36,364 nt of DNA from an uncultured cyanobacterium (lineage in GTDB: Bacteria; Cyanobacteriota; Cyanobacteriia; Cyanobacteriales; Microcystaceae), in assembly GCA_963807635.1 (NCBI GenBank), contig CAWEDJ010000077.1:1-36364 (forward strand), read 5' to 3'. The stretch's first letter is position 1. Each line of letters starts with the position of its first letter. The notes under the pieces are model-generated. The model was not told the origin of the DNA and searched no databases. It worked only from the letters and a program-made list of their open reading frames with translations. The position numbers and the translations under genes are program-made. Of this stretch, positions 11,596-29,841 are shown one piece after another.

Positions 11596-11666
11596 AATTA
11601 CCATGCAAATTCTAGTTACTTTCCATTTGTTCTCTATGTTCATTACCCTCAATGACTTGATAGGCT
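11596..11666 (+). promoter_or_regulatory. 11-bp tandem repeat operator + extended -10 (site 1)
   Basis: AATTACCATGC AAATTCTAGTT ACTTTCCATTT, 32 nt, then TAGGCT (11661) preceded by TGA. Confidence 0.65.
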
Positions 11667-11695
11667 ACAAAGGATAAAGAAACAGAAACTATCCC

Positions 11696-12346
11696 ATGAA
11701 TCAGCCAAAACCAACTCATCTTAGAATTTTTCGCAGACAATCCCCTGTGCAGGTATTAGGGCCACATAAACGAGCAGTGATCTGGTTGCAAGGTTGTGAT
11801 TGGGGTTGTCGGGGTTGCATTGTCCCTGAGTCCTGGTCAAAAACGGCGGGGGAGTTAGTTTCCCTAGAGGATTTACAGACTTGGATTTTGGCTCAGTCCG
11901 AGATTGAGGGCATTACTTTTTCGGGGGGTGAACCGATGTTACAGGCAGATGCTCTGACGGAGTTGGTGGATAGGTTACGACAGGAACGCGATTTAGGGGT
12001 GGTCTGTTATACGGGTTATACAAATCAGAGGTTAGAGACCCAGGGGACGGTTGCCCAAAAGGTTTTTCTGAGTCGTATTGATCTACTGATTGACGGTCTG
12101 TATAGTGAAAATCAGCATGGTAATTTGCTGTGGCGAGGCTCAAGTAATCAGGGTTTGCATTTATTAACGGAACGTTATCGTACTGTTCTGGCTGAGACTC
12201 TGGAAAGGGGGGATGTTTCGGCGGGATTAGAGTTTGTTTCGAGTACGGAACGGGAACTCTATTTTACGGGAGTGCCTGAGAAAGCAGGGTTTCGGGGGGC
12301 TTTTGAGGCCAAGTTACAAACTAAAGGTATTTTATTGAGGGCTTAA
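11696..12346 (+). CDS. Radical SAM protein, NrdG/organic-radical activase-like
   Basis: LGP.KRAVIWLQGCDWGCRGC (CxxxCxxC), GITFSGGEP, YTGY, DLLIDG, WRGSSNQ. Confidence 0.88.
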   Translation: MNQPKPTHLRIFRRQSPVQVLGPHKRAVIWLQGCDWGCRGCIVPESWSKTAGELVSLEDLQTWILAQSEIEGITFSGGEPMLQADALTELVDRLRQERDLGVVCYTGYTNQRLETQGTVAQKVFLSRIDLLIDGLYSENQHGNLLWRGSSNQGLHLLTERYRTVLAETLERGDVSAGLEFVSSTERELYFTGVPEKAGFRGAFEAKLQTKGILLRA

Positions 12347-13643
12347 GTTATGTTTAATTGGACAGATTTAGAAGGTCAAAGAATTGGCTCCTATCATTTG
12401 GAAAAACTTTTGGGAGCGGGTACCTTTGGTGCGGTTTTTAAGGCGGATGAAGTTTTAAGGGATCGATTTATCAGATCGGTCGCTATTAAAGTTTTTAAAG
12501 AACAGGATATTTTCCCTTTAGATGAGTTAATTGCCACGACAAATTTAGAGCATCCTAATCTCATTCGTGGTTATGTAGCTAGAGAAGATCAGGTTGGCAA
12601 CACTAAATTTAAGGTTCTATATTTAGTGATGGAATTAGCCGATGGAACTTTAAATAATTATCGCCATGCAAATAGTCTAAAATCACAAGAGATTCGAGAA
12701 ATAGCTATTGCAGTTGCTTCAGGTTTAATCTATTTACACAGACAGAAAAAGATACATCAAGATTTAAAGCCTGATAATATTTTACGGGTTAAAAATATCT
12801 GGAAATTGTCCGATTTTGGCTTAATTAGAGATTTGGGCACTCGTAGTTATCTGGCAACACAACATCCCGTAGGGACTTATCCCTATATGTCTCCTGAAAT
12901 CTTTAATGGTGGCATACTTTCTTCAGCTTTTGATGTCTGGTCACTGGGAATTATATTAGTAGAACTGACGACAGGAAAATTACCTTATCAATTTAATGAT
13001 GAACATCATTTAATGAAGCGGGTGATGAATTGTGAATTACATTTGCCACTTTTGCCCGATCAATTTAAGCCAATTATTTTGGGCTGTTTACAACAGAATC
13101 ACCAACGCCGTTGGACTGCTCAACAAATCTTAAAAGCCTTACACCCCACAGTTATTGAATTTGTATCTCCTCCAGTTTCCCCCTCTCCCAATCCCCAAAT
13201 CCTAATCCAAGACTTGCCCAACAACATCAAATTAGAGATGATCAAAATTCCTTCAGGTAGTTTTATGATGGGTTCTGCGAATAATAATTTGAACACTGAT
13301 AATTATGAAAGTCATCAACACCAAGTGACTTTACAGCAATATTTTTTAGGAAAATATCTTGTCACCAATAAACAATATCAAGCTGTAGTAGGAAACAATC
13401 CTTCATATTTTAAAGATAATCCAAAAAATCCTGTTGAATGTGTCAGTTGGAATGATGCGAAAACGTTTTGCCAAAAACTCAAAGAAATTACAGGGAAAGA
13501 ATTTCGTTTACCTACAGAAGCAGAGTGGGAATATGGCTGTCGAGCAATGATCTCCCCAACCGCTCTTAAAAAAGGGTATAGTATGAAGTGGCCCCCCAAA
13601 ACTGGACAGTAGTGTAAGCTCTAAATCGAAACCCAGGAGATCT

Positions 13644-13961
13644 ATGAGCAACAAGAAAAAACAGTACGGTGCCCAGTTCAAAGCCAAAGTCGCCTTAGAA
13701 GCAATTCGAGGAGAAAAAACGGTATCTGAATTAGCCAGTCAATATGAAATTCATCCAACAATGATTAATGGATGGAAAAGAAAAATATTGGAAGAAGCTA
13801 GTCAAATCTTTGAGACAGAAAAACAAGGAAAAGAAATCAAAGAAAAAGCTGAAACCCAGATAGATGAACTATATCGACAAATAGGAAAGCTAAAAGTCGA
13901 GCGAGATTTTTTAGTAGACAGGTCGGTACAATTGGGGCTGCCGACCGAAAAACCTTGGTAG
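13644..13961 (+). CDS. IS3-family transposase OrfA
   Basis: FKAKVALEAIRGEKTVSELASQYEIHP HTH and LYRQIGKLKVERDFL zipper. Confidence 0.92.
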   Translation: MSNKKKQYGAQFKAKVALEAIRGEKTVSELASQYEIHPTMINGWKRKILEEASQIFETEKQGKEIKEKAETQIDELYRQIGKLKVERDFLVDRSVQLGLPTEKPW

Positions 13962-14776
13962 ACCCCAAGCATCCTGAATTGTGTATCCAACGTCAATGTG
14001 AATTATTAGGAATAAGTCGTTCGAGTTATTATTACGAACCGAAGGAAATAAGTTCCGAAGAATTAACGCTATTGAGACTGTTGGATGAGCAATATATGAA
14101 AACACCATTTTATGGGAGTAGAAAAATGACAGTATACCTCAATACGTTGGGTTATGAGGTAAATCGAAAAAGAGTGATACGATTGATGAATCAATTGGGG
14201 ATACAAGCAATTTACCCAAAGAAACGAACAACAATACGAAACCCTGAGCATCAAATTTATCCTTACTTATTACGAGAGTTAAGCATTGAAAAAGCCAATC
14301 AAGTGTGGTGTACCGACATCACCTATTTGCCAATAGGAAAAGGACACTTTTATCTAGTCGCCATTATGGATTGGTTTAGCCGTAAAGTCTTATCATGGAG
14401 GATGAGTAACACGATGGATGTTTATTTTTGTAAGTCAGCTTTGGAGGAAGCATTATTAATTTATGGCAAACCAGACATCTTTAATAGTGATCAAGGAAGC
14501 CAATTTACTTCAAAGGAATTTACAGGATGTTTAAAGCAAGAAAACATCAAAATTAGTATGGATGGAAGAGGACGTTGCTACGACAATATTTTTATTGAAA
14601 GATTGTGGCGTTCTCTGAAATACGAATTAATTTATATTTATTCCTTTGAGGATGGAAAACACTTGACAGAAGAGGTAAAGAAATGGTTTAATTTCTATAA
14701 TAAGGAACGTTTCCATCAAGCCTTAGAATATCAAACGCCAGAGCAAGTCTACGGTCAAAGTTTGAATTTGACTTGA
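13955..14776 (+). CDS. IS3-family transposase OrfB (DDE)
   Basis: WCTDITY, FNSDQGSQF, DNIFIERLWRSLKYE; overlaps OrfA in the -1 frame. Confidence 0.93.
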   Translation: MVDPKHPELCIQRQCELLGISRSSYYYEPKEISSEELTLLRLLDEQYMKTPFYGSRKMTVYLNTLGYEVNRKRVIRLMNQLGIQAIYPKKRTTIRNPEHQIYPYLLRELSIEKANQVWCTDITYLPIGKGHFYLVAIMDWFSRKVLSWRMSNTMDVYFCKSALEEALLIYGKPDIFNSDQGSQFTSKEFTGCLKQENIKISMDGRGRCYDNIFIERLWRSLKYELIYIYSFEDGKHLTEEVKKWFNFYNKERFHQALEYQTPEQVYGQSLNLT

Positions 14777-15257
14777 GAGAACGTTTTTAGTTAGGGAGTC
14801 CGTTAACTTCAGAGCTTCACTCCCCGCTATTTTTGTTCAGCCTATTGGGGCCACCTCAGTACACCTCTTTACTGTTTTGGCGATAACGAAAATCAGCTAG
14901 AAAACTATGCTTGGTATCGGAACAACTCAGGTGGTAAAACCCATCCTGTAGGACAGAAAAAGCCGAATCAATGGGGGCTATATGATATGCACGGAAATGT
15001 ATGGGAATGGTGTGAGGATGGTTGGCATGAGAGTTATGCAGAGAAACCAGGAAATCTCAAAACCAATGGCAACATTATATGGTCAGGTGATAGTAATTTT
15101 CATATACTGCGTGGCGGTTCTTGGTACGACTATGCAAGGGGCCTGTCGTTCGGCTATTCGGAACAGGATCAATACAGATTACAGAAACAACCTCATCGGT
15201 TTTCGCTTGGCTCTTTCTATTTTGTGAGATCCCTTATTGAGATTGGGAGATGAGGGA

Positions 15258-15412
15258 GAAAAAGTTATCCAAAAATTAGCCCTTAAATTATTTATTTACC
15301 AAGAACAAAAGGAGTTTATTTCCCAATGGATAAACTAAATTTTTATCGTGAAGTCATTCAAAAAATTTTTGGAGATTACAGCGATATTTATTGGGAATCT
15401 CTTCTGATATAA
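15258..15412 (+). pseudogene. Remnant of an xisH/xisI pair (XisH C-terminus + XisI N-terminus)
   Basis: 15258-15338 reads EKVIQKLALKLFIYQEQKEFISQWIN*. It overlaps ATG 15326, which reads MDKLNFYREVIQKIFGDYS... and stops at 15412. The ATGGATAAACTAA overlap is typical of the xisH-xisI junction. Confidence 0.7.
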
Positions 15413-15504
15413 CGATTATGCGGTTTCTTAAATTATGTTTAGATTTGGAAAGCAAACCCCTACCTTAACAAGATAAAATAAAACTAGCCTCTTATCAAAT
15501 TAAT

Positions 15505-15723
15505 ATGAACAGAAAAGCCCTTCTTCTACAAAACCTTGATGAGCTTCCTGAAGCTATCAGTCAAGAAGTTTTAGACTTTACCTTATTTCTACGCGATAAA
15601 TTAGAACAAAAAGAAGATGAGGAAGATGAGGAAGACCTAAAAGATATCCAAGCAGAACTCGCAGAAGAGGGTCTAATTTCCTTAGCTAATGTCAAAAAAG
15701 AATTGGGATTATCAGTAATCTAA
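15505..15723 (+). CDS. DUF2281-like small acidic antitoxin-type protein (no adjacent toxin)
   Basis: LDELPE...QEVLDF..FL motif, acidic stretch, ISL..VKKELGL C-terminus. Confidence 0.6.
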   Translation: MNRKALLLQNLDELPEAISQEVLDFTLFLRDKLEQKEDEEDEEDLKDIQAELAEEGLISLANVKKELGLSVI

Positions 15724-15766
15724 AATCATTCTCTTTACCTCCAAATCTCCCCCTCTCCTAGTCTCC

Positions 15767-17452
15767 CTAAACGGCGATCGCCTGAAGCTTTTCAATTAAA
15801 TCCCCCCGCCGAAAAGTTGCCGAAAGCTGCTGTAAAGAAACCGCTTGTCCTCCATATAAACTATTCAGCGCAAACTGAACATCCTGAACTGCTCCATTAA
15901 ATAAATCGTCTCCCTTTTCTTGAATTAAACGATGGGCCTCCTCAAAATAGCGATGATTCAACTCATTAAGATTGATCCTCATTGAACTTAATAGCCGTCG
16001 CCCCATTTGCATGGCAATAAAACAGGAAGCATAACGCACAAAATCAGGATCATTTGCCTCTGGTCGCTTACGCCGATTCTCAGCCATTCGATATAAATAA
16101 ACCGCAATCACAACCTGAGTGCCATTAAGCTGATTCGTAAAAATAAAATCGTAGAGTTTACCGAAATGTTCACGGGTAAAAAACTTCGCTTGATGGGGTT
16201 TTTCTCGCCAAATGGCTAACACAGCTTCTGCCGCCACTCCTGCCGTTATATCCGTAGATTTAAGACTCGAATCAGAGCGTTTACGACGATAGGTAAACCC
16301 CAATTGCTGGAGATCAATTTCTAATCTTTGTTGACGCTCATCATTAGCACGTAAATCCTTTAAATCTACTGGATTTTGACTATTGGTTGCATAGGTAATT
16401 TTTTGGACTAAATCTTCATTGTCACTGGGTAATTGATAGAGGCGCAGTAAAACATAGGCTTGGGAATTTTGCTGAAGCAAATTTAATAAATTTGGCTCTT
16501 GTAAGGTTCTAAAAATGGTCATACAAGTTTGACCACCATTAATAATTTGCAGATTTTCTACCCGCACCTTATAGTCGCCATTTTGAAGCGCGTTATAGGA
16601 AAATTTATCGCAAATCAAGGTAATGCCATTATTGTAAAAATAAAAATTACTTTTCTCCTCATTCATCAAAGTATTGCGAATGCCTTCATTAACTCGATTC
16701 CCTTGTAACCCCAAATAACGACGAATATTTCTTTCTAATAAACGCTCTCCATGTCGTTCAATCAGAGCCGCAATTTCAGTAACCGCAACTCTCCCCACTA
16801 ATACCCGACTAAAATTGAGATCTTCCACCACAGCTTGCCCACTGAGTTGGAGATGATCATTGACAGGTTTGGAGGCTTGGAGAATTTTAACTAAACGATC
16901 AGGATTGACGTGTTCCCAGGTCGCTTGATCCCCAAAACCTGCTCGATCAATAGCTTCCTGGGCGGAGGCATTCCACTCCAAGCCGTTGTTACAGGCTAAG
17001 GCTCGAATTTGGGGAATATAACCATCTCGAATGAGACTACGAGCTTCTTCGACTTTAGTTAATAAACGGGGATTAATATAGTCTAATTTGGCTGTCGGAT
17101 CGAATAAAAAACGAATGGCATTGATTAAAGCAGTTATTCCTTCTTCGGGAAAATTGGCATTGCCTTCTAAGTTATTTTTATATTTTCCTTGAAATAAACT
17201 AACGGTAAATTCACCATCATATTCTTCCGAAAGATGGATTGCATCTACACCAAAATCTCCACCGCCTTCTGTTAAGCAATCAAAAGCAACATCATTGTCT
17301 AAATCCAAAATGGTTTTAACACAAAAATAGACGAAAGATAAAGATTTGAGCCTACCTGCATCGGTAATACGCAATTCTTCCGCCGCTTGTTGGCGAATTT
17401 CTTCAACGACTGAAGTTAAACGTTGGTCAATGATAGAAACATTGATATTCAT
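15767..17452 (-). CDS. AIPR family (abortive infection phage resistance) protein
   Basis: DFGVDAI..FQGKY N-terminus; ERNIRRYLG, FYFYNNGIT, QIINGGQT, ATNSQNPV. Confidence 0.9.
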   Translation of the reverse strand: MNINVSIIDQRLTSVVEEIRQQAAEELRITDAGRLKSLSFVYFCVKTILDLDNDVAFDCLTEGGGDFGVDAIHLSEEYDGEFTVSLFQGKYKNNLEGNANFPEEGITALINAIRFLFDPTAKLDYINPRLLTKVEEARSLIRDGYIPQIRALACNNGLEWNASAQEAIDRAGFGDQATWEHVNPDRLVKILQASKPVNDHLQLSGQAVVEDLNFSRVLVGRVAVTEIAALIERHGERLLERNIRRYLGLQGNRVNEGIRNTLMNEEKSNFYFYNNGITLICDKFSYNALQNGDYKVRVENLQIINGGQTCMTIFRTLQEPNLLNLLQQNSQAYVLLRLYQLPSDNEDLVQKITYATNSQNPVDLKDLRANDERQQRLEIDLQQLGFTYRRKRSDSSLKSTDITAGVAAEAVLAIWREKPHQAKFFTREHFGKLYDFIFTNQLNGTQVVIAVYLYRMAENRRKRPEANDPDFVRYASCFIAMQMGRRLLSSMRINLNELNHRYFEEAHRLIQEKGDDLFNGAVQDVQFALNSLYGGQAVSLQQLSATFRRGDLIEKLQAIAV

Positions 17453-17527
17453 AACTTTTAGCTTACATCAAGCCTTACAGTTTTCAGCGATCGCGTTTTA
17501 TAGAGTAGGACGAGAGACGATCACTGA

Positions 17528-17597
17528 AAATTCCATCTAAATTCCAGACAATTTACAGATACCTACAATTCCCTTCTGATCAGAGATTCCCTATGCT
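17528..17597 (+). promoter_or_regulatory. 11-bp tandem repeat operator + -10 (site 2)
   Basis: AAATTCCATCT AAATTCCAGAC AATTTACAGAT, 31 nt, then TATGCT (17592). Confidence 0.72.
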
Positions 17598-17630
17598 GAA
17601 ATTATTGAACTAGCAAAGGAAAATCACCCC

Positions 17631-18911
17631 ATGAGCGGAAGTCCCAAATATACCAGAGCCGAACTCGATCGCCAACGTCAAGAAAAGTTAGAGAGCGATC
17701 GCCGTCGTAAAGCGGAACAGGAAGCCCGTCGTCGTCAGGAAGCAGAAGAACAGGAACGCCAACGACAATTAGAAAACCAGCGTCGTCAAGTTTCTGAACA
17801 ACTGAAAAGCTTGATTGCCCAACTTAAACAACAATCCGATCAGGTTTATGGCGCAAATTACCAACAGTTGCAACAACAGGGTCAATCCCTAGAAAAACAA
17901 GTTCAATCCGTCTCTGTCGCCGATCAATTCATCAGCATTCAATCCCAAATCAATCAATTGCAAAAAGCTTGGGAAACAGCTAAACACCAAAAATGGCACG
18001 ATGAACAGGAAAAATTGCGTCAACAGGAATTAGATAAACAAAAATTTGCCCTTGAAGACTGCGATCGCCGTTTAGCCCAAATTCTTGAAGATGGCCAAAA
18101 ATTTGATAGCCAGGGTTTAACCGTTGTTCAACAGTCCTTATCTAAGCTCAAAAATCTGATTGCTCAAGGAAATCCTATCCCAGTTCGTCAACCTTTAAAA
18201 GAGTCCCAACAGGCGATCGCGACTTACCTGGACAAGATACAAGCCCTCAAACAAACTTGGCAGAATCAGAAAAACCAAGCCGAGCAAGAATTAGGACAAA
18301 TACAAACCGCGATCGCGGGTCTCCAGGCTGACCCAGTGGTAATACTGTGGCAGGAAGCTATGGTCTGGGAATTACTCAAAATGCAACATCAGGCAGAAAA
18401 AGCGATTGATCAGGAGCAATTTACACAAACTGCGGTATTTTTGAGTCAAGTCAAAACTAAGCAATCTCAAATCATCGAAACAGCTAATGCGGCACAATTG
18501 AAGGCGGATCAACGGGATTATATTGCCGACAGCATCGCCGAAAGTTTGCAAGAAATGGGTTTCAGTATTGTTTATCGTCAACCTGAACAGGCCGATCATC
18601 CTGCCAGTGCGATTATTCTGGGGGCAGCGACTAATTCAGGGAAGGGCATCAGTGTCAGTGTTCCTGTAGAGGGAGAGGTTTTCTATGATGTGGAGGGTTA
18701 CAGCAAACAAACCGTTGCGGCGGTGGGAGGTGGCTCGGCTCCCGTTTGTGATGAAGCCGAACAGGTGATCACAGAGATGCACGAGGTTCTAGCGGCTCAA
18801 TTTGGGGTACAGATGGGAGTTTTGGATTGGGAAGGGAAAGATCCCCATCGGCAATTACGCAAAGCGGATAGTTTGCCCCAGGCTCAAGGCCATTCGGTGC
18901 GGCGATCGTAA
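17631..18911 (+). CDS. Uncharacterised coiled-coil protein with a C-terminal alpha/beta domain
   Basis: Long Q/E/R/K-rich helical region, then IAESLQEMGF...ISVSV...VFYDVEG...CD...WEG. AAGGA RBS upstream. Confidence 0.75.
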   Translation: MSGSPKYTRAELDRQRQEKLESDRRRKAEQEARRRQEAEEQERQRQLENQRRQVSEQLKSLIAQLKQQSDQVYGANYQQLQQQGQSLEKQVQSVSVADQFISIQSQINQLQKAWETAKHQKWHDEQEKLRQQELDKQKFALEDCDRRLAQILEDGQKFDSQGLTVVQQSLSKLKNLIAQGNPIPVRQPLKESQQAIATYLDKIQALKQTWQNQKNQAEQELGQIQTAIAGLQADPVVILWQEAMVWELLKMQHQAEKAIDQEQFTQTAVFLSQVKTKQSQIIETANAAQLKADQRDYIADSIAESLQEMGFSIVYRQPEQADHPASAIILGAATNSGKGISVSVPVEGEVFYDVEGYSKQTVAAVGGGSAPVCDEAEQVITEMHEVLAAQFGVQMGVLDWEGKDPHRQLRKADSLPQAQGHSVRRS

Positions 18912-18950
18912 GGGAGAATAGGGAGACTGAGAGACGGGGAGATTAGGAGA
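18911..18950 (-). repeat. G-rich short tandem repeats (inverse of 19349-19479)
   Basis: AGGGAGAATAGGGAGACTGAGAGACGGGGAGATTAGGAGA; GGGGAGATTAGG is the reverse complement of CCTAATCTCCCC. Confidence 0.7.
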
Positions 18951-18958
18951 CAACTTAA

Positions 18959-19348
18959 ATGGATCATGAACAGCCTCAAAAAATCAAAACCCATGAAGAT
19001 TTAAGAGTCTATCAAATGGCTTTTGAGGCCGCGATCGCCATTTTTGAACTATCCAAACAGTTTCCCATTGAAGAACGCTATTCTTTAACCGATCAAATCC
19101 GTCGCTCCTCCCGTTCCGTTTGTGCCAATCTAGCCGAAGCTTGGAGAAAAAGACGTTATCAAGCGGCATTTATCGCTAAATTAAATGATAGCGAAGCCGA
19201 AGCCGCAGAAGTCCAGGTGTGGTTGAAATTCGCTGTTAAATGTGGCTACTTAGACATCGAAACAGGCAGACAACTGTATGCCCAATATAATCAAATTCTC
19301 GGCAGCCTCGTCACCATGATCAAAAACCCCAAAAACTGGCTCCTCTAA
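18959..19348 (+). CDS. Four-helix bundle protein (23S-IVP/Avd-like family)
   Basis: DLRVYQ.AF, FPIEERYSLTDQIRRSSRSVCANLAEAW, EAAEVQVWL.FA..CGY. Confidence 0.9.
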   Translation: MDHEQPQKIKTHEDLRVYQMAFEAAIAIFELSKQFPIEERYSLTDQIRRSSRSVCANLAEAWRKRRYQAAFIAKLNDSEAEAAEVQVWLKFAVKCGYLDIETGRQLYAQYNQILGSLVTMIKNPKNWLL

Positions 19349-19479
19349 CCCCCAATCTCCCCATCCCCCTAATCTCCCCATCCCCCTAATCTCCCCCTCT
19401 CCCAGTCCTCCCCCTCTCCCAGTCCTCCCCCTCTCCCCTCTCCCAATCTCCTCATCCCCCTAATCTCCCCAACTCCCCT
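19349..19479 (+). repeat. C-rich STRR-like tandem repeat tract
   Basis: Units such as TCTCCCCA, TCCCCCTAA, TCTCCCAG, TCCTCCCCC fill the whole intergenic space. Confidence 0.9.
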
Positions 19480-21161
19480 ATGTACCCTGCAAGTTATTGG
19501 CAAAAGATTATTAAGAAAGATCAAGAGAAAGATCAGGAAACCTGGTTTGGCTCGAAATATCTCCTCAAGGAATTTATCGGTTGTGGAGCCTATGGAGCCG
19601 TCTTTAGAGCCGATGAGATGCTCGCAAAGCGTGTAATGCAAACGGTGGCGATTAAGATTGTGATTGTTGATCTGGAGCATTTAGATCAACAAATTGAGGA
19701 ATTACAGTTAGCTGTAAGGCTTAGACATCCCCATTTAATTAATGGCATTACCTGTGAACAAGGAGAACTAAATGGGGATTTATGTATCGGGTTAGTGATG
19801 GAGTTAGCAGATGATTCTTTGGAGAGTTATCTTAAGGTGAGTAAGCCCCCTTTAGCGGTAGAATTTGTTAGCACTTTGGTTCAGCATTTAGCAAAGGGTT
19901 TGGCTGACATTCATGGTCAGGGAATTATTCATCGGGATTTAAAGCCTGCCAATATTTTACGGGTGGGAGAAAAGTGGAAGTTAGCAGATTTTGGGATTGC
20001 TCGTTCTTTAAAGGATGGCACTAGCACTTATACAAGTAAACAATTTGGTACTTCAACGTATATGCCTCCTGAATCCTATTACGGAAAAATTTCCCCTGCT
20101 TGGGATTTATGGTCATTAGGGGTTATTATCCACAATTTATTGAGTAATCAGCATCCTTTTCCGACTCAAATTGAAGCTGAGTTAGTGAGGATGGTGTTAA
20201 ATGAAGAGCCAACTTTATCGGCAAATTTAGGTTCACCTTTTCGAGAAATCGTGACAGGTTGTTTAGTCAAGGAACCGAAAATCGCTGGACAGCAAAACAG
20301 GTTTTAACAACGTTACAATCCCCAGTTATTCAATTTGCTTCTCCTCCCGTCCCCCAATCTCCACCTCTCCCAATTCCCCTAGTTTCCTCTCGTCCCCCAG
20401 TCCTAATCTTAGACCTTCCTCATAACATCAAATTGGAGATGATCAAAATTCCTGCGGGTAGCTTTTTTATGGGTTCCGCAGACAATAATTCTAGAGCCTC
20501 TAAGTATGAAAAACCCCGACATCAAGTGACTTTACAGGAATATTATTTAGGGAAATATCCTGTAACTCAAGAACAATACCAAGCAGTCATGGGGTACAAT
20601 CCCTCACACTTTAAAGATAATCCCAAAAACCCCGTCGAGAGCATAAATTGGAATGATACGAAAACCTTTTGCCAAACAGTATATGAAATCATAGGACAAA
20701 AAGTACGCTTACCAACAGAAGCAGAATGGGAATATGGCTGTCGAGCAGGGACAACAACTCCATTTTACTTTGGAGAAACAATTTCAACAGAGCAAGCCAA
20801 TTACAATGGAAACTATACTTTCGGAGAAGGAAAAAAGGGTACTTATCGGGAAAAAACAACGCCAGTAGGAAGTTTCCCCGCTAATAAATTTGGACTATAT
20901 GATATGCACGGAAACGTTTGGGAATGGTGCGAAGAAAGTTGGCATGATAACTATGCTGAGAAGCCAGAGAAGCTAAAACAGAATGGAAACATTATATGGT
21001 CATCTAGCAATGAATCACTTCATGTACTGCGCGGTGGTTCTTGGCTGCACTATCCAGAGCATTGTCTTTCGGTGAAGCGGAGCAATTCTGAAAATATTTT
21101 TGTGTTTAGTCAGACAGTCGGTTTTCGTCTGGCTCTTTCTTTTTTCCAGGCTCCCTTTTAG
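19480..21161 (+). pseudogene. Ser/Thr kinase-FGE-sulfatase(CLec) fusion 2, frameshift at about 20276-20281
   Basis: Kinase (GCGAYG, VAIK, HRDLKPAN, DFG) ends GCLVKEP. The next frame continues NRWTAKQVL, as in the paralogs, then a Pro-rich linker and a full FGE domain. One base is missing. Confidence 0.85.
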
Positions 21162-21271: not shown

Positions 21272-21598
21272 ATGCTGAAATCTATCCCTAAAAGCTCAGT
21301 CTTAAATCAACTAAAACTTTACTTATCTGAAGTTTACCAAAACCAACTTGAGAAAATCATTCTTTTTGGTTCTCAGGTGAGAGGAGATGAAACCCCAGAA
21401 TCCGATTTTGATATTTTAATCATTTTAAGAAAGCCCTTTGTTTACTATCAAGAAATTCAGAAAATCAGTGAATATATTAGTGAACTATGCTTAGAAAATG
21501 ATATTTTAATCACCTGTTGCTTTACAACTCTAGAAAAATGGAATACTGAAAATAGTGCCTTTTATCGCAATATTCATCAAGAAGGTATGGTTTTATGA
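21272..21598 (+). CDS. Minimal nucleotidyltransferase (MNT)
   Basis: ILFGSQVRGDETPESDFDILI (GS...DxD); likely ATG at 21272. Confidence 0.88.
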   Translation: MLKSIPKSSVLNQLKLYLSEVYQNQLEKIILFGSQVRGDETPESDFDILIILRKPFVYYQEIQKISEYISELCLENDILITCCFTTLEKWNTENSAFYRNIHQEGMVL

Positions 21599-21969: not shown

Positions 21970-21983
21970 CAACACAGTCTTTA

Positions 21984-22054
21984 AAATTCCAGCCAAATTC
22001 CAGCTAATCTCCATCCCCTTACCATTCAAATTAGCCTATCCTCCTTGATACAGT
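21984..22054 (+). promoter_or_regulatory. 11-bp tandem repeat operator + extended -10 (site 3)
   Basis: AAATTCCAGCC AAATTCCAGCT AATCTCCATCC, 32 nt, then TACAGT (22049) preceded by TGA. Confidence 0.75.
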
Positions 22055-22081
22055 GAAAACAACATCAAGAGGAACAAACCC

Positions 22082-24043
22082 ATGACAAGCGATCGCCTAA
22101 TTTCCGCCCGTTGGATACAGGACTTTGAAAAACAACTTTATCGCCGCCGCCATCTCATTCTCTATGGCAATATCCACGATCAATTTCTCTGGCGAGGAGC
22201 CTATCTCGGTATTCAAGACTTTTTACAAACCTACTTTCAAGACTTAGGCTTTGACCTCGTTTCCCGTTATGACCCCATTGATGGCTTCACCTTTGCCCAG
22301 GAAACCATGCGGACAGAATTCGATCGCCTAACCCAACAAGCCCTACAACCTAACCCCGTTTCTCCCAATCCCCCTGTCTCCCCCGTCTCTCCTATTGCTC
22401 CACCCCCACGCCGTAGCCCTGCCGCCAACGTCCCCCGTCAAGTTAATCAACGGATTATTCCTGAAGAAGCTTTTGGGAATCTGCGGGTAGTCGTCAAACA
22501 GGAAAAAATCCCCACCGCCACCGTCATTGATCTTGGCGATATGCTCACTACCGACGGCGATCGCTATCCTGTCGAAGAACGCAATGCCCTGATTTTATTG
22601 AAAAAATGTACCCTAGAAGCGGCGATCGTCCGAGAAGGCAATTTAACGGGCTATCGCAACACCCTGATTATTCTTGCCAGTGACCTCAATCGCGTTCCTG
22701 TCTGGTTCCATGCCAACAATCCCCACGTCAGCATTATCCAAGTAACCCGTCCTAACAAAGAAGAACGCAAACAATTTATTCTGCGCTTTGGGCAAGAAGG
22801 ATTTTATCGCGGGCAACAAGCCCGTCCCGATACCTCGGAATTAACAAGTCTAGCGGAGGATTTTGCAGAATTGACCGATGGTTTTCAGACCTTGGAACTG
22901 GAAGCTCTACGCCATACTTCCCACCGTGAAAAACTTCCCCTCAGCCAAAAAGAGCTAATCAAATTAGTAGATTTTTATAAATTTGGGCAAAAAGAAGAAC
23001 CCTTTGAACAAATTAATGCTGAAAAAATTAGTCAAGCCAGAGAGCAATTAACCCGTTCTGTTCTGGGACAAAATCATGCTATTGAAGCGGTAACAAATAT
23101 GTTAACCAATGCCAAAGTGGGCATCAGTATGAGTCAGGTCAGTGGCCGCAATAGCAAACCCAAAGGAGTCTTTTTCTTTGTGGGGCCAACGGGCGTGGGT
23201 AAAACGGAATTAGCGAAATCCCTCAGTCGTCTGATTTTTGGGGATGAAGAGGCTTTTTTACGCTTTGACATGAGTGAATACAAGGAAGAACACGCGGCAG
23301 AAAAGTTAGCAGGTGCGCCTCCTGGGTTTGTGGGCTATGAAGAAGGGGGACAATTAACCAATAAAATTTTGGAACGTCCCTACCGTATTTTGCTCTTTGA
23401 TGAAATTGAAAAAGCCCATCCCAAAGTATTGGATAAATTCTTACAAATTCTCGAAGATGGTCGTCTAACCGATGGCAAAGGACAGACCGCCTATTTTAAT
23501 CAAACGGTAATTATTTTCACGAGTAATATCGGAGCTTCAGACCTGAGCGATCCGCAAACAGGAACAGTGATTCGTCCAGGCATTATGAATCAAGTGCAAG
23601 CGGGCGGGGTTGAAAATTTCAGCTATGAACAAGTCCAAGATCATTTTCAAGAAGAAGTAAAATGGTATTTCACCAGTCGCATTGGTCGCGCTGAATTGTT
23701 AAATCGTTTGGGGGATAATGTGGTAGTTTTTGATTTATTACGTCCCGATTATGTGGCGGCTATTGGTAACAAATTTTTACGCCAACTGAGCGAATCCGCT
23801 TTGGATAAGTATCAATTAAAATTGACCTTTGAGCCTTCTATTATTGAGGGATTAAGAACAGTAATGGAGCAGCAGGAAAATTTATTGTTTGGGGGACGAC
23901 GCATTAAGAGTTTATTAGAAACTTTGGTGGAGCGTCCGCTCAATCGTTGGTTATTTGAGCATTATCCTGATTTGAATCTTTTAATGGGCAAGGCTTTATC
24001 ATTAGGATTTAATTCCAGTAATGATTTAGTAGTTAAGGAGTAA
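22082..24043 (+). CDS. ClpB-like AAA+ ATPase with a degenerate N-terminal module and an intact C-terminal (D2-type) module
   Basis: FFVGPTGVGKTELAK, RFDMSEY, GAPPGFVGY, LFDEIEKAHP, FTSNIG, ELLNRL, GGRRI. The N-terminal LILYGNIHD lacks a Walker A lysine; no Clp N-domain. Confidence 0.88.
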   Translation: MTSDRLISARWIQDFEKQLYRRRHLILYGNIHDQFLWRGAYLGIQDFLQTYFQDLGFDLVSRYDPIDGFTFAQETMRTEFDRLTQQALQPNPVSPNPPVSPVSPIAPPPRRSPAANVPRQVNQRIIPEEAFGNLRVVVKQEKIPTATVIDLGDMLTTDGDRYPVEERNALILLKKCTLEAAIVREGNLTGYRNTLIILASDLNRVPVWFHANNPHVSIIQVTRPNKEERKQFILRFGQEGFYRGQQARPDTSELTSLAEDFAELTDGFQTLELEALRHTSHREKLPLSQKELIKLVDFYKFGQKEEPFEQINAEKISQAREQLTRSVLGQNHAIEAVTNMLTNAKVGISMSQVSGRNSKPKGVFFFVGPTGVGKTELAKSLSRLIFGDEEAFLRFDMSEYKEEHAAEKLAGAPPGFVGYEEGGQLTNKILERPYRILLFDEIEKAHPKVLDKFLQILEDGRLTDGKGQTAYFNQTVIIFTSNIGASDLSDPQTGTVIRPGIMNQVQAGGVENFSYEQVQDHFQEEVKWYFTSRIGRAELLNRLGDNVVVFDLLRPDYVAAIGNKFLRQLSESALDKYQLKLTFEPSIIEGLRTVMEQQENLLFGGRRIKSLLETLVERPLNRWLFEHYPDLNLLMGKALSLGFNSSNDLVVKE

Positions 24044-24055
24044 AAATCTGACTTG

Positions 24056-24098
24056 TATCCCCCCAGCCTTAACTTTGAAAGGGGGGATATCATTTTTT
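24056..24098 (+). terminator. Hairpin plus T-run after the AAA+ gene (cyanobacterial REP-like)
   Basis: TATCCCCCC-N16-GGGGGGATA followed by TCATTTTTT. Confidence 0.55.
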
Positions 24099-24172
24099 CT
24101 GGATAAAATGACATACGGACATTATAATGTAAAACTAGATTAGGCAATTTGAGATTTAGAAGAAGTAAAATT

Positions 24173-25928
24173 ATGAATCATGCACCACTTTGGTCAATGC
24201 TAGAAGACCAGATTATCAAAGAACAATACCATTTGAAAGAGCTTTTAGGAGTAGGAGGCTTTGCGGGGGTATTTCGGACGGATGAAGTAATTAAAGATAC
24301 CTGTGTGCGGGTAATAGCAACTAAACTAATTCCTATTGATAATGTTGGGAACAGTGATAAACAATTACAAGAGTTACAGGCTGGTCTTAGTTGTGATCAT
24401 CCTAATTTACTACGTTGTTATGGAGCAGGAGAAATAACCATTGGCAAACAGTCTTTTTTATATTTATTGATGGAATTAGCAGAGGAAACTTTACAACAAC
24501 GATTAGAAAGAGGTAATGTTTCCACTGAAGAGAGTATAGGTATTTTTAAAGATATTACTGAAGGATTAATATATCTTCATCAAAAAAATCAGGTTCATTT
24601 GGATTTGAAGCCTGCTAATATTTTAAAAATTAATGGAAAATGGAAAATTGGTGATTACGGTTTAGTTCGTTTTATTAATCCTGACAAAAGCTACATCCAA
24701 ACAGCTAATAGTGTAGGAACTCCCTTGTTTGTTCCTCCTGAAAGTTATCAAAATATTATTTTTCATGGATGGGATATTTGGTCATTGGGCATAATTTTTA
24801 CAATTCTGTTGACAGGAAAGTACCCAATTAAATATGAAAGCCCTAACGAATTACAAGAAAAAATTATAAATATTCAATTAGACAATCTTGAGCTTGATAG
24901 TTTAGACCAATGTTACAGAGATATAATTCAAGGGTGCTTAATCAAAGATCGTCAAAAACGTTTAACGGCTATACAAGTGAAGAATTTCTTACCCCCCGTT
25001 AATAAAGATTTTCAATCTTTTATTCCATCAAATATTATATCTAACCCTAGTAAGATCTCAAGAAGGACTTTTTTAATTACAGTCTGGGTTAACTGGAATA
25101 GGAATAGGTTCAGGAGTTTTTGTCTATGCTCGTCCAAAAGATGTAGAAAATGAAATAACATCATTAGTAAAATTAGAAACTTTTAAAGAAACTTTACCTA
25201 GCAATGTCATATTAGAAATGACAAAAATTCCAGCAGGAACATTTTTAATGGGGTCTGCCCCTACTGGTGATTCTGATGCAAGAAAATTTGAAAAGCCTCA
25301 ACATGAAGTAGAAATAAATAAATTTTACTTAGGAAAATATCCTATTACTCATGAACAATATTTAGCTGTAATGAAAAAAAGTCCTTATCCAGTTCAAGAA
25401 GATAGCATTAAAAATCCAGTTGAAAATGTTACATGGGATGATGCCCAAGAATTTTGTCGTCAATTAAGCTCCATGACAAGGAAAGACTATCGTTTACCTA
25501 GCGAAGCTGAGTGGGAATATGCTTGTCGTGCTGAAACAACAACGCCATTTTACTTTGGTAATAATGCTAATTTATTAAATGAATATGCTTGGTATGTTGC
25601 TAATTCTCAAGATCTAACTCATCCTGTTGGACAAAAGAAACCAAATAAATGGGGACTCTATGATATGTACGGTAATGTTGCTGAATGGTGTCAAGATGGA
25701 TGGCATGATAATTACATTGGTGCACCTACCGACGGCTCTGTATGGAATGGTAAAAATCTTCTGTGGAATCCATCTGATAAGATTATGCGTGGAGGTTCTT
25801 ATTTTGATGATATAGAGTCATGTCGATCTGCTGATCGGAGTGCTACTGATAAAAATATAGTTGTTAGTAGTATCGGTTTTCGAGTAGCTGTGTCATTTAC
25901 TTTTAGAACTGAAATAACATACTCATAA
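24173..25928 (+). pseudogene. Ser/Thr kinase-(TM)-FGE-sulfatase(CLec) fusion 3, frameshift at about 25075-25085
   Basis: Kinase (GVGGFAG, ATK, HLDLKPAN, DYG) runs to SRRTFL. The shifted frame reads LQSGLTGIGIGSGVFVYARPKDVENE...LPSNVILEMTKIP, continuous with ORF 25218..25928. Confidence 0.82.
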
Positions 25929-25966
25929 TTATAAAATATGGTAAAAGTCATAGCAGATTATTTCAG

Positions 25967-26036
25967 AATTTCCAGCTAAATTCCATCTAAATACCAGCCG
26001 TTTTCAATGGAGATTTCCAAAGTAACTTGATAACCT
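25967..26036 (+). promoter_or_regulatory. 11-bp tandem repeat operator + extended -10 (site 4)
   Basis: AATTTCCAGCT AAATTCCATCT AAATACCAGCC, 31 nt, then TAACCT (26031) preceded by TGA. Confidence 0.75.
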
Positions 26037-26068
26037 GAAATTGTCGGCAAATAACTCAGGTACAAGCC

Positions 26069-27058
26069 ATGAAAACCCTCTCCCTCCTTACCTCTGGTAT
26101 TATCCTCACCGCTACTGGTATCCTAACAGGACAAAATATGGCAACCATGCTGGGAACCGCGATCGCCGCTTCTGTGACCACCACCGCAATCTCTACCAGC
26201 GAAGAAAAAAAGAAAACCAACACCGCTCTGCAAGCCATAGAAACCGCGATCGCCACCACAGAAACGGCAATCCAACAGAAAATCGAAACTATTGAACAAA
26301 AAGTCAAAATCACAACCAAAACCACTGACAAAATCAGCAAAGAAATCCAAACTCTCCAGACCAGTAAACGCCTCATTATTGCAAAACTACAAACAGCCCA
26401 AAAACAACAAACTATTTTTTCTGGCAAACTTAACCATCAGCAACAACAGTTAACGGCTCTCAAAGCTCAACCCCCAATCCCACAGCCTCAGAAAACCGAA
26501 AAAAAAGTTCTTTCCTTTCTACCCAAGCAACGTCAAACCGTAACCCATATCTCCATTGACGGCAATAACTTTAGCAAAACGGCTGAAGAACTCAGTTTAG
26601 CCATTGACTGGAAGGCTTTAAAAATTGCCCTCACGGAACAGACTCAAGGAACGGATACTTTCACTTTAAAATATTACACAGGTCTGTACGAGAATCCGAC
26701 CTATGAGCAACGATCAAAACTCAACTATCTAAAATCCTTAAAATATGAGGTGATCTCGCTTCCCCTATCTCGACAAGGTAACGGAAAATGGAAAACTATC
26801 GGTGATGATATGGCGATCGGAGTTGACCTCATGGACTCCGTACAATCAGGCGATCAAGTCATCTTAGTAACAGGAGATGGAGACTTTCTTCCTCTAATTC
26901 ACAAACTATTAGATCGCCGAGCTAATGTTATCGTCATTGGAGCTTCTTCCCATACTAATTACCGCCTACAGGCATTACAACAAGAGGGTTTTCAATTTAT
27001 TCGTTTGGAATCCATTAGTGAACAAATTAGTCAATTGCAAAAACTAGCAGTTGCTTAA
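26069..27058 (+). CDS. NYN/LabA-DUF88 (PIN-fold) nuclease with N-terminal hydrophobic helices and coiled coil
   Basis: ISIDGNN, KTIGDDMAIGVD, LVTGDGDFLPL; hydrophobic residues 1-38, then a coiled coil. Confidence 0.82.
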   Translation: MKTLSLLTSGIILTATGILTGQNMATMLGTAIAASVTTTAISTSEEKKKTNTALQAIETAIATTETAIQQKIETIEQKVKITTKTTDKISKEIQTLQTSKRLIIAKLQTAQKQQTIFSGKLNHQQQQLTALKAQPPIPQPQKTEKKVLSFLPKQRQTVTHISIDGNNFSKTAEELSLAIDWKALKIALTEQTQGTDTFTLKYYTGLYENPTYEQRSKLNYLKSLKYEVISLPLSRQGNGKWKTIGDDMAIGVDLMDSVQSGDQVILVTGDGDFLPLIHKLLDRRANVIVIGASSHTNYRLQALQQEGFQFIRLESISEQISQLQKLAVA

Positions 27059-27073
27059 TCTTTTTGCCAATAA

Positions 27074-27103
27074 TCCCCATCTTAATTCGTGTTAGGGTGG
27101 GGA
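27074..27103 (+). terminator. Intergenic hairpin after the NYN gene
   Basis: TCCCCATCTTAA-TTCGTG-TTAGGGTGGGGA (two G-U pairs); no clear U-tract on the + strand. Confidence 0.4.
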
Positions 27104-27180
27104 ACAAATAAAGTAAATATTACATTTTTAGGATAATATTAATTTAAGCCCAGCTATCAGGGATTTAAGGAGTAAAAGTT

Positions 27181-29592
27181 ATGTTTGCCGCACCACTTTG
27201 GAGAATGTTGGAAGGACAGATCATCAAAGATCAATATTATCTCCAGCAAGTGCTAGGAACAGGGACTTTTGGCGGAGTTTTTCGCACGGATCAAGTGGTT
27301 CGAGATACGATTTTAAGAACTTTAGCAACAAAAGTGATTTTTATTAATCAACCTGAATTAGTCAGCTATCAATTACGAGAGCTACAGGTTGCCCTAAATT
27401 TTGATCATCCTAATTTGATAAAATGCCATGATGCAGGAGAAGCAAAAATTGAAAAGCTCTCTATTTCTTGTCTCTATCTATTAATGGAGTTAGCAGAGGA
27501 AACCTTAGAAAATAAATTGAAGCGAGGAAATATCTCTACAGAAGAAGTCAAAGTAATTGTTGAAAATATTGCTGAAGGATTAGCTTATTTACATGAAAAG
27601 GAGCAGGTGCATTTAGACCTCAAACCTGCCAATATTTTAAAAGTTAATGGGCATTGGAAGATTGGAGACTATGGTTTAGTTCGTAGTCTTGATCCTCAAC
27701 GAAGTTATATGGAAACGATGAACTTCTCTTTAGGAACCACAGCTTATTCTCCTCCAGAAAGTTATCAGGGTATTATTGCACCTGCATGGGATATGTGGTC
27801 ATTAGGAATAATTACTGTGATGTTATTAAAAGGTAAGTATCCGATTCAGTTTCAAACGCAAGAAGAGTTAGGAGAAAAGATTAAAGCGGGTCAATTTAAT
27901 AACCTTAATTGGGATGATTTAGAAGAGCCTTGGTGGAAGATTATTCAAGGATGTTTACAAGTCAACCGTCAGCAACGTTGGACAGCTAAACAAGTTTTAT
28001 CGGAACTTAATTCGGAAAATATCCCAGTTCTGACTATTATACTTCCTGGTGGAATTGAATTAGAAATGATCAAAATTCCTGCGGGTAGTTTTTTGATGGG
28101 TTCTGCGGATAATGAATTTGATGCTTATGCTTCTGAAAAACCGCAACATCGAGTGACTTTACAGGAATATTATCTAGGGAAATACCCTGTAACTCAAGAA
28201 CAGTATCAAGCAGTGATGGGTAACAATCCTTCACGCTTTAAAGACAATTCTAACAATCCCGTTGAGCAAGTAATTTGGAATGATGCGAAAGCTTTTTGTC
28301 AAAAGCTGAAAGAAATTACAGGAAAAGAATTTCGTTTACCAACAGAAGCAGAATGGGAATATGGCTGTCGAGCAGGGACAACAACGCCGTTTTACTTTGG
28401 AGAAACTACATCAACAGAGCAAGCCAATTACAATGGGAACTATACATTTGGAGAAGGAAAAAAAGGAATCTATCGAGAGAAAACAACGCCAGTGGGAAGT
28501 TTTCCCGCTAACAAATTTGGACTATATGATATGCACGGAAACGTGTGGGAATGGTGCGAAGACAGTTGGCATGACAGCTATGCTGAGAAACCAGAGAGTA
28601 TTAAACAGAATGGAAATACTCTCTGGTCATCTAGTAATGAATTACCTCACATACTGCGCGGTGGTTCTTGGAGCCGCGATCCGAGATACTGTCGTTCGGC
28701 GATTCGGCGCAGGGGGGGTAAGGGGAGCAACTACAACGGTTTTCGCTTGGCTCTTCCCATACAGGTTCGTCAGACCTCAGAACCAACCATCATTCAATTT
28801 GCAACTCCCCCAGTCTCCCTCTCTTCCTCGTCTCCCAATCCCCCAGTCCTCACCCTAGACCTTCCTACTAACGTCAAATTAGAGATGATCAAAATCCCTG
28901 CGGGTAGTTTTTTGATGGGTTCTGCGGACAATGATCCTGATGCTTATAATGAAGAAAAACCTCAACATCGAGTTACCTTACAGGAATATTATTTAGGGAA
29001 ATATCCTGTTACCCAAGAACAATATCAAGCAGTAATGGGTAACAATCCTTCAGGGTTTGATGATGATCTTAAAAATCCCGTTGAACAAGTCAGTTGGAAT
29101 GATGCCAAAACCTTCTGTCAAAAGTTATATGAAATCACGGAGAAAAAAGTTCGCTTACCAACAGAAGCGGAATGGGAATATGGCTGTCGAGCAGGGACAA
29201 CAACACCGTTTTACTTTGGAGAAACTATATCAACAGAGCAAGCCAATTACAATGGAAACCATTTCTTTGCCCAAAAGAAAGGAGGTATCTATCGGGAGAA
29301 AACAACCCCAGTGGGAAGCTTCCCAATGAACAAATTTGGACTATATGATATGCACGGAAATGTGTGGGAATGGTGCGAAGATAGTTGGCATGAAAGCTAT
29401 GCAGAAAAACCAGAGAACCTCAAATCCAATGGCAATACTATATGGCTATCTGCAATAGACCAAGGTCATCATCTGCGCGGTGGTTCTTGGCACAGCAAAT
29501 TGAGGGACTGTCGTTCGGCGTGTCGAGATAGGTTCCTTGCAGATTACTGGGACGAATCTCTTGGTTTTCGCTTGGCTCTTTCCATTTCTTAA
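27181..29592 (+). CDS. Ser/Thr kinase with two tandem FGE-sulfatase(CLec) domains (fusion 4, intact)
   Basis: GTGTFG, ATK, HLDLKPAN, DYG; two copies of RLPTEAEWEY...[12 protein letters not shown]...RGGSW...GFRLAL. AAGGAG RBS. Confidence 0.93.
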   Translation: MFAAPLWRMLEGQIIKDQYYLQQVLGTGTFGGVFRTDQVVRDTILRTLATKVIFINQPELVSYQLRELQVALNFDHPNLIKCHDAGEAKIEKLSISCLYLLMELAEETLENKLKRGNISTEEVKVIVENIAEGLAYLHEKEQVHLDLKPANILKVNGHWKIGDYGLVRSLDPQRSYMETMNFSLGTTAYSPPESYQGIIAPAWDMWSLGIITVMLLKGKYPIQFQTQEELGEKIKAGQFNNLNWDDLEEPWWKIIQGCLQVNRQQRWTAKQVLSELNSENIPVLTIILPGGIELEMIKIPAGSFLMGSADNEFDAYASEKPQHRVTLQEYYLGKYPVTQEQYQAVMGNNPSRFKDNSNNPVEQVIWNDAKAFCQKLKEITGKEFRLPTEAEWEYGCRAGTTTPFYFGETTSTEQANYNGNYTFGEGKKGIYREKTTPVGSFPANKFGLYDMHGNVWEWCEDSWHDSYAEKPESIKQNGNTLWSSSNELPHILRGGSWSRDPRYCRSAIRRRGGKGSNYNGFRLALPIQVRQTSEPTIIQFATPPVSLSSSSPNPPVLTLDLPTNVKLEMIKIPAGSFLMGSADNDPDAYNEEKPQHRVTLQEYYLGKYPVTQEQYQAVMGNNPSGFDDDLKNPVEQVSWNDAKTFCQKLYEITEKKVRLPTEAEWEYGCRAGTTTPFYFGETISTEQANYNGNHFFAQKKGGIYREKTTPVGSFPMNKFGLYDMHGNVWEWCEDSWHESYAEKPENLKSNGNTIWLSAIDQGHHLRGGSWHSKLRDCRSACRDRFLADYWDESLGFRLALSIS

Positions 29593-29782
29593 TCTCCTTG
29601 CCCTTTGCTCTTTTTGCTCTTTTGTTTCCTGCCAGAATTTTTCCATAGGGGATTTGAAGATCAAACCCTGGTTTATAATTTTATTTTTTTAATCTAAGCA
29701 TTAGGAAATTTTAATTCTTAATACTAAATATAACCCACTTAAAGATTAAAACTCCGTTAAAAAGCTTCTTTGCCTCTCTCAA

Positions 29783-29841
29783 AATTTCCATCTAATTTCC
29801 ATACAGATTCTATGGAGTCAATCAGATAACCTTGATACGCT
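29783..29841 (+). promoter_or_regulatory. 11-bp tandem repeat operator + extended -10 (site 5)
   Basis: AATTTCCATCT AATTTCCATAC (then a weaker AGATTCTATGG). The second unit ends 31 nt before TACGCT (29836), which is preceded by TGA. Confidence 0.7.

Follow-up and report, generated by a model that had tools for sequence, protein, structure and literature searches.

Tandem 11-bp arrays at five promoters of a cyanobacterial cassette as predicted binding sites of a linked FHA-winged-helix regulator

Introduction

Regulators of the OmpR/PhoB family bind head-to-tail to direct repeats, and both winged-helix proteins on 11-bp repeats and the combination of an FHA domain with a winged helix are already known. 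Here, we describe a locus of this kind in an uncultured cyanobacterium of the Microcystaceae (GenBank assembly GCA_963807635.1, contig CAWEDJ010000077.1). The analysed stretch, referred to as the window, is 36,364 nucleotides (nt) long and is an entire contig (G000:C77) of a 4.03-Mb genome that is 93.7% complete. It contains five tandem arrays of an 11-bp unit, each upstream of a gene in a putatively mobile cassette. We consider it probable, from sequence comparison, that these arrays are binding sites of the FHA-winged-helix protein encoded in the same cassette, which would act as an activator gated by phosphorylation through the cassette kinases.

Among the closest described systems are ToxR and TcpP of Vibrio cholerae, one-component OmpR-type winged-helix activators that are bound in tandem at ompU and toxT. 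According to the available part of PMC12802830, ToxR protomers cover positions -49 to -42 and -40 to -35 at ompU, with contact to the C-terminal domain of the RNA polymerase alpha subunit. ToxR and TcpP are membrane proteins with periplasmic sensors, whereas the regulator described here is soluble by sequence and carries an FHA domain; the site sequence is also different, and the five promoters lie in one mobile cassette. In Mycobacterium tuberculosis, DNA binding by EmbR is enhanced by PknH phosphorylation (PMC6213207, available in part), and in the SARP family the AfsR afs box spans -40 to -19 with its 3' repeat 8 bp from the -10 element (PMC10936776, likewise available in part). As far as those texts go, our locus shares with EmbR/PknH and the SARPs the OmpR-type winged helix, the FHA combination with kinase-dependent DNA binding (proposed here) and the 11-bp direct repeats, but EmbR is ordered winged helix-turn-helix (wHTH), BTAD, FHA, whereas here the FHA domain comes first and no BTAD was found. 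The response regulators YycF/WalR, SaeR and PhoB belong to the same DNA-binding domain family, but unlike two-component systems of the OmpR/PhoB type, the regulator has no receiver domain and the cassette no histidine kinase. To our knowledge, the motif is also unlike the cyanobacterial SphR, RpaB and ManR boxes. In the literature searched, which was available in part, with subscription papers and supplements outside its scope, we found neither this domain order nor the motif, the promoter geometry or the regulon.

A regulator with an FHA domain and a winged helix

The candidate regulator is encoded directly upstream of the first array:

10878..11594, + strand: regulator of 238 amino acids (aa), with an N-terminal FHA domain and a C-terminal OmpR/PhoB-type winged helix

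Its Pfam matches are FHA (1.6e-6) and Trans_reg_C (4.2e-5), the latter just below the curated cut-off (24 vs 26.2 bits). The family profile matches the DNA-binding domains of YycF (best, E 4.9e-6), VicR, SaeR and ToxR, as well as EmbR, and the Atlas cluster of the regulator is 88% Trans_reg_C. The structure model (predicted local distance difference test score, pLDDT, 88) matches an FHA fold and shows winged-helix secondary structure. Searches of the regulator gave no match to a receiver domain, residues 27-101 being FHA, nor to BTAD, as the protein ends at the wing hairpin at residue 238; there is no membrane segment either, as both sequence and model stop at the wing. Named relatives are found in Snowella, Microcystaceae and Oscillatoria records.

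In a survey of 401 genomes of the order, close homologues of the regulator occurred in 17 genomes and distant ones in 10 more, where the division between the two, at E 1e-53, is our own reading. A metagenome scan added two close regulator loci that were too short on the downstream side to help. The G-R, hydroxyl-R-x-x-H and S-x-N-G motifs of the FHA domain are conserved; G30-R31, R49, H52 and G71 are invariant and N70 nearly invariant.

Five promoters with tandem arrays

The initial annotation had placed tandem 11-bp arrays (AAWTTCCAKCT) at 11596, 17528, 21984, 25967 and 29783, before radical-SAM, coiled-coil, AAA+, NYN and vWA genes. All five were re-located:

11596..11666, + strand: Promoter 1 (radical SAM); four 11-bp units at 11596-11639, a 21-nt spacer ending in TGn, -10 TAGGCT at 11661-11666
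17528..17597, + strand: Promoter 2 (coiled-coil gene); units at 17528-17571, a 20-nt spacer, -10 TATGCT at 17592-17597, without TGn
21984..22054, + strand: Promoter 3 (AAA+); units at 21984-22027, a 21-nt spacer, -10 TACAGT at 22049-22054
25967..26036, + strand: Promoter 4 (NYN); units at 25967-26010, a 20-nt spacer, -10 TAACCT at 26031-26036
29783..29841, + strand: Promoter 5 (vWA-FHA-PP2C); two strong units and a proximal unit at 29783-29815, a 20-nt spacer, -10 TACGCT at 29836-29841

The distance from the last strong unit to TANNNT had been given as 31-32 nt, and we measured 32, 31, 32, 31 and 31 nt (-10 elements at 11661, 17592, 22049, 26031 and 29836). CTTGA was seen immediately before the -10 at four of the five sites, again as reported; under the TGn rule for extended -10 elements, it is a predicted extended -10. 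The element proved longer than first described: a further unit, the fourth, is degenerate (T-x-C-x-A-T), occurs at all five sites and stops 20-21 nt short of a TAnRCT -10. The number of strong units at the vWA site is two instead of three. A sigma-70 consensus scan called no consensus -35 element or sigma-70 promoter at the five promoters, the totals being at shuffle level.

The array of Promoter 1 begins 2 nt past the regulator stop codon and is the weakest of the five (leave-one-out rank 26); it has orthologous sites in G011, G028 and G038. Promoter 2 has an orthologous site in eight other genomes, plus G038, Promoter 3 before the AAA+ gene in G614, and Promoter 5 in G011, G046, G143 and G459; the NYN homologue in G196 is likewise preceded by a site, as in Promoter 4. 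Promoter 3 has an alternative -10, TATCCT at 22037-22042, in the same register. An AIPR/AbiU-like gene at 15767-17452 is a divergent insertion immediately 5' of the array of Promoter 2.

In the window, the array is restricted to these five places: no other window position scores at least 18, and the upstream regions of the kinase, four-helix-bundle, FHA, PP2C and regulator genes score at most 8.7 with the motif matrix. The single 11-mer is not enriched when two mismatches are allowed (84 matches vs 74.4 +/- 9.6 in shuffles), whereas tandem units are, so that the signal lies in the tandem arrangement. A matrix built from 14 units was scanned as unit pairs over 8,050,714 genome positions. Nine of the ten top scores fell on the five sites, and with triple units the top 11 were all registers of these sites; leave-one-out pair ranks were 26, 6, 2, 2 and 6, with the training sites themselves counted among the higher ranks. 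As the best pair and triple scores in the genome are confined to the cassette, the motif is not a dispersed repeat, and scans of homologous clusters showed that its geometry recurs in other cyanobacteria.

These results also bear on the possibility that promoter duplication left the arrays behind as relics, or that they are a dispersed repeat with no present function, which we regard as extremely unlikely. Promoters are visibly duplicated in relatives, as seen in two near-identical copies in G011 and in the kinase promoters of G046, and the window cassette has broken genes. However, among the window promoters the units are 0.70 alike and the proximal cores 0.90, but the spacers only 0.35 and the flanks 0.25. 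All five arrays are intergenic and in the orientation of the downstream gene, and a search of Rfam gave no match for them.

Promoter geometry in other cyanobacteria

Loci of other genomes, 921,127 bases in total, were scanned with the window matrix and gave 33 two-unit matches, 27 of which have TANNNT at offsets 53, 54, 64 or 65 (background rate 0.068). After exact duplicates were dropped, 25 of 31 matches have TANNNT at the offsets of the window. In an alignment of 31 sites anchored on the -10, a distal unit is optional; two strong units (AAWTTCCAKCT) follow, then a proximal unit that is degenerate and, after 20 or 21 nt, a TAAGCT- or TAGGCT-like hexamer. The proximal unit was not scored, and its core letters are T in 84%, C in 97%, A in 100% and T in 100% of the aligned sites. 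An extended -10 (TG at -15/-14) is present in 12 of the 31. Ten orthologous promoter pairs were compared: identity was 0.92 for the proximal core and 0.74 for the strong units, against 0.34 for the spacer and 0.32 for the flank. In this comparison, the letters of the strong units and of TANNNT were selection criteria and those of the proximal core were not.

With the hexamer placed at -12 to -7, the proximal core falls at -40 to -35, which matches the position of the proximal ToxR protomer in the available part of PMC12802830. Thus, the likeness to OmpR- and SARP-type activators that had been proposed stands for the winged helix and the 11-bp direct repeats but not for the SARP geometry: the proximal unit ends 20-21 nt upstream of the -10 in the 31 sites, as opposed to 8 bp in what was available of PMC10936776, and ToxR/TcpP are the better comparison. 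The geometry also differs in this from PhoB, which contacts sigma.

The same regulator might act as a repressor that covers the -35 region and is freed when the FHA domain is engaged, comparable to some defence-island repressors. This is conceivable, as OmpR-type proteins can repress, the proximal unit overlaps the -35 position, and the 12 sites with an extended -10 could work without an activator. We consider it unlikely, as a repressor needs no exact 20-21 nt phase, yet this phase is kept across five cyanobacterial families. Furthermore, no consensus -35 was called at the five promoters, and most units lie upstream of -35, where polymerase would not be blocked.

Sites accompany the regulator

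The coiled-coil gene is present in 31 of the 401 genomes, and 30 of its loci were compared (one genome yielded no locus). Among the 11 loci with a close regulator, nine have an array directly upstream of the coiled-coil gene (scores 24.5-31.4). In the tenth (G038), the array is on the contig with the start of the coiled-coil gene, and in the eleventh (G658, a cluster of broken genes) a degenerate array with a TTCTAT core is in the right place, which we do not count as a fourth variant. Of the 19 loci without a regulator, only one has a site (G604), and the other 18 score at most 10.8. As the coiled-coil gene is often internal to an operon in regulator-less clusters, ten of these were scanned over 233 kb: the geometry scan gave no matches in them and 21 in eight regulator-bearing clusters including the window (about 0.3 in shuffles). 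Thus, the motif marks membership of the system, as the initial annotation had suggested, for the first gene of each transcription unit and in regulator-bearing versions only; the window kinase, FHA and PP2C genes have no site of their own, and 18 of the 19 regulator-less coiled-coil loci lack one.

A strict blind pattern found 40 places in 18 of the 401 genomes (reversed control 0), and 11 of these 18 have a close regulator. Four of the 40 matches (G539, and G513, G642 and G660, which are one orthologous stretch) are antisense inside coding regions and were taken as chance, and 73 single pattern matches on viral contigs, none near a cassette gene, were taken as background. In G046 and G143, exact matches occur only within the cassette. 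In G035, where the regulator stands alone, one well-formed site (L103:13351-13933) lies 2.7 Mb away before a DUF6717 gene, and its array resembles the coiled-coil promoter. No site precedes two NYN homologues from another genus, and when 21 loci that lack the main motif were searched de novo for repeats under relaxed settings, nothing convincing emerged. We also saw a site before a short hydrophobic open reading frame (ORF) of ~75 aa, 3' of a regulator-kinase pair (L177:12854-13180, G640).

Regulator paralogues and site variants

Distant regulators in G449, G572, G646 and G687, which represent four families, are each accompanied by one TTCAAT array with unchanged spacing. This array occurs once per genome, within about 1.6 kb of the regulator, in four of five genomes searched, and precedes the regulator gene itself in two of the four. 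In G046, G143, G556 and G516, a second paralogue is grouped with a kinase and an unassigned 240-aa gene in a module of three genes (L025:4630-5623; L316-L318). Here, a TTTTAT double array lies before the 240-aa gene, two genes past the paralogue, with the proximal unit 20 nt from GAG(G/T)CT, and three of these four genomes also carry the TTCCAT cassette. The strict TTTTAT triple pattern matched only G046 among five genomes, so this variant rests on the alignment. Together with the winged helix and the co-occurrence of sites, paralogues that have their own variants at the same spacing agree with the earlier proposal that the FHA-wHTH protein (10878-11594) is the predicted reader of the sites.

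Several observations weigh against this assignment. Cassette sites but no intact regulator were found in G366 and G604, both fragmented, with vWA contigs that end before the usual place of the regulator, and in G196 the regulator is internally deleted while one site stands before an NYN homologue 45% identical to that of the window. G022 and the second regulator copy of G035 have no site in the stretches examined, and their recognition helices deviate. Seven of 11 distant-type loci examined have no site; the geometry scan found none in G550, G639, G576, G619, G287 and the second G640 copy, and none within +/-1.5 kb in G563. The TTTTAT variant was read after the fact, in two sequence groups of one genus and with a -10 candidate that starts with G, and the recognition helices give no clean code for the three variants. 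On the coiled-coil tree, from which two motif-bearing rows (G614 and G622) were left out as they had been missed by the ORF filter, the motif needs two changes only and kin are not independent. The co-occurrence thus amounts to few independent events, and a single origin of the motif on this tree is possible. The classical FHA motif carries Ser where the close clade has Thr48 and a one-residue insertion; the distant clade mostly keeps S-R-x-H. Finally, three of the four kinase-FGE genes (12350-15227, 19480-21161 and 24149-25928) and the PP2C gene (31485-32296) are interrupted in the window, so that the circuit in this genome may be decaying.

Part of this would fit a host factor that reads the sites while the FHA-wHTH gene only travels along; such a factor could be an alternative sigma factor or one of the common response regulators of the OmpR family. 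G196, G366 and G604 have kept sites although no intact regulator was found in them, and the co-occurrence is based on few independent lineages. We find this quite unlikely. A host factor should have further targets, but there are none in this genome, and exact pattern matches in G046 and G143 are limited to the cassette. Regulator-less cassette versions lack sites, and a shared factor is hard to reconcile with different variants that adjoin different paralogues within one genome.

A predicted phospho-gated activator

Under the favoured reading, with the FHA-winged-helix protein as activator, three or four protomers would bind head-to-tail, one per helical turn. The core of the proximal unit at about -40 to -35 would stand in for a good -35 element, and RNA polymerase would be brought to promoters whose only other element is a -10, often extended. 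In this way, a single regulator could turn on the five transcription units, each separate, of a mobile cassette with radical-SAM, coiled-coil, Clp-like AAA+ and vWA genes. The presence of an FHA domain, as in the case of EmbR and PknH, suggests phospho-threonine gating: the domain would substitute for a receiver and most likely read phospho-threonine from the cassette Ser/Thr kinases.

Kinase genes lie behind four of the five window promoters, and the PP2C gene is in the vWA unit. Four kinase genes of G046 have arrays of their own, which makes the kinases members of the regulon. Kinase tails vary (FGE, GUN4 or TPR), which suggests the variety expected of sensors, and the tails are their likely sensory parts. 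PP2C may reset the switch. As kinases and phosphatase sit inside regulated units, the circuit could first amplify and then damp itself.

Layout of the cassette and its surroundings

The cassette spans 10878-32296. Its gene order is FHA-wHTH regulator, radical SAM, kinase-FGE, coiled-coil protein, kinase-FGE, Clp-like AAA+, kinase-FGE, NYN, kinase-FGE-FGE, vWA, FHA and PP2C, interspersed with an IS3 element, an AIPR gene, a four-helix-bundle gene and an MNT-HEPN pair:

11696..12346, + strand: radical SAM protein with an NrdG-like fold, score under the NrdG cut-off
12350..15227, + strand: Ser/Thr kinase-FGE gene 1, broken by an IS3-type element (transposase ORFs 13644-14776)
17631..18911, + strand: conserved helical (coiled-coil) protein, no Pfam family, small alpha/beta C-terminal domain
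19480..21161, + strand: kinase-FGE gene 2, two overlapping frames (19480-20307, 20259-21161)
22082..24043, + strand: AAA+ ATPase with a ClpB/ClpC D2-like C-terminal module, N-terminal half without assigned family
24149..25928, + strand: kinase-FGE gene 3, split (24149-25153, 25218-25928)
26069..27058, + strand: NYN-domain protein (Pfam NYN) with a hydrophobic N-terminus and a coiled coil
27181..29592, + strand: kinase-FGE-FGE gene 4, reading frame intact, 803 aa
29868..32296, + strand: vWA (29868-31091), stand-alone FHA (31088-31492) and PP2C phosphatase in two frames (31485-31967, 31625-32296)

The breaks are due to IS3 in one gene and to frame changes in three, and may reflect decay or assembly error; PP2C homologues elsewhere are single ORFs of 267-284 aa. 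Pyrimidine-rich tandem repeats of 8-9 nt lie 3' of the four-helix-bundle gene (19334-19487) with an inverted partner on its 5' side (18912-18949), and similar tracts encode Pro/Ser linkers in the kinases.

On the cassette flanks (5202-10393; 33384-36362), we observed two divergent ~620-aa genes that are weakly tyrosine-recombinase-like, a ParA-like gene with a small partner, and an open helicase-like ORF of 993 aa. The surroundings are probably an integrative or plasmid-type element. A dndC fragment, a 260-aa gene without assignment and an HNH nuclease at 1092-4198 are likely the edge of a phosphorothioate locus. We infer that the setting is a mobile element in a defence-rich spot. HIP1 octamers were also seen in the window and, with the named relatives of the regulator, point to a cyanobacterial origin.

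A possible role in conflict

NTP-dependent conflict systems of multicellular bacteria were described by Kaur et al. 2020 (PMC7159879), the text of which was available in part. Like those systems, our cassette has vWA genes, kinase/PP2C/vWA triads, FGE(FGS)-type tails and radical SAM (found there in one subtype), as well as a patchy, mobile and cyanobacteria-rich distribution. In contrast to them, neither a MoxR ATPase nor a GAP1 GTPase was identified in the window, and the radical-SAM / coiled-coil / Clp-D2 core, the FHA-wHTH regulator and the promoter motif are not described in the available part of that paper. A role in defence or cell conflict would be a guess, with modest odds. More specifically, we tentatively suggest, as a possibility that is rather doubtful, an inducible immune or conflict cassette on a purely Ser/Thr-phosphorylation circuit, with the array as a barcode that also finds dispersed members. 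Here, kinases with lectin-like tails would sense an invader, the FHA-winged-helix activator would turn on the five promoters, and PP2C would shut them off. The regulon would comprise radical SAM, the helical protein, a Clp-like unfoldase, the NYN nuclease, vWA and the kinases themselves, with the NYN gene in G196 and the DUF6717 gene in G035 as dispersed members.

The NYN protein has a full-length PADLOC match (PDLC01154, E 2.8e-85). PADLOC gave no match for the regulator, coiled-coil, vWA and FHA proteins, and partial matches only for AAA+ and radical SAM. The coiled-coil protein has 251 representatives at E<=0.001, and its homologues reach Planctomycetes and other phyla. In its model (pLDDT 91.6), an N-terminal strand completes the C-terminal alpha/beta domain. 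Foldseek found no match at E<=0.001; VIA gave a best Z of 9.5 on helical bundles and 9.1 for a KA1-like (kinase-associated) domain, which is a lead only. A resemblance of the C-terminus to DUF2997/DUF1257 had no Pfam support. An Atlas look-alike cluster of this protein is phage-rich.

The kinase-FGE genes, which have an Avd-like neighbour, were also considered as targets of a diversity-generating retroelement and rejected as such: no adenine-biased partner was found for the five FGE 3' regions in this assembly, and reverse transcriptase genes are located on other contigs, not with the kinase-FGE genes. Where the regulator is missing, the core of radical SAM, coiled-coil and AAA+ genes is combined with vWA-Hsp70 genes or with others that are uncharacterised. 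One such version is carried by plasmid pGM01 of Geminocystis, where dCTP deaminase and dGTPase genes annotated as anti-phage lie nearby. At L056:14899-19960 (G110) and L184 (G577), the core adjoins vWA-Hsp70-coiled-coil genes, or else a row of five genes without annotation; by eye, two of the five start like P-loop GTPases.

Conclusions

An undescribed cassette, present in 31 of the 401 genomes surveyed in the order and also in other phyla, now has a candidate operator, promoter architecture and regulator that can be tested. Raising or activating one small protein should turn on the whole cassette, which is the easiest route to its function. For cyanobacteria, the system is a candidate equivalent of two-component signalling that is based on Ser/Thr kinases, and specificity may be studied through its three naturally occurring pairs of regulator and site.

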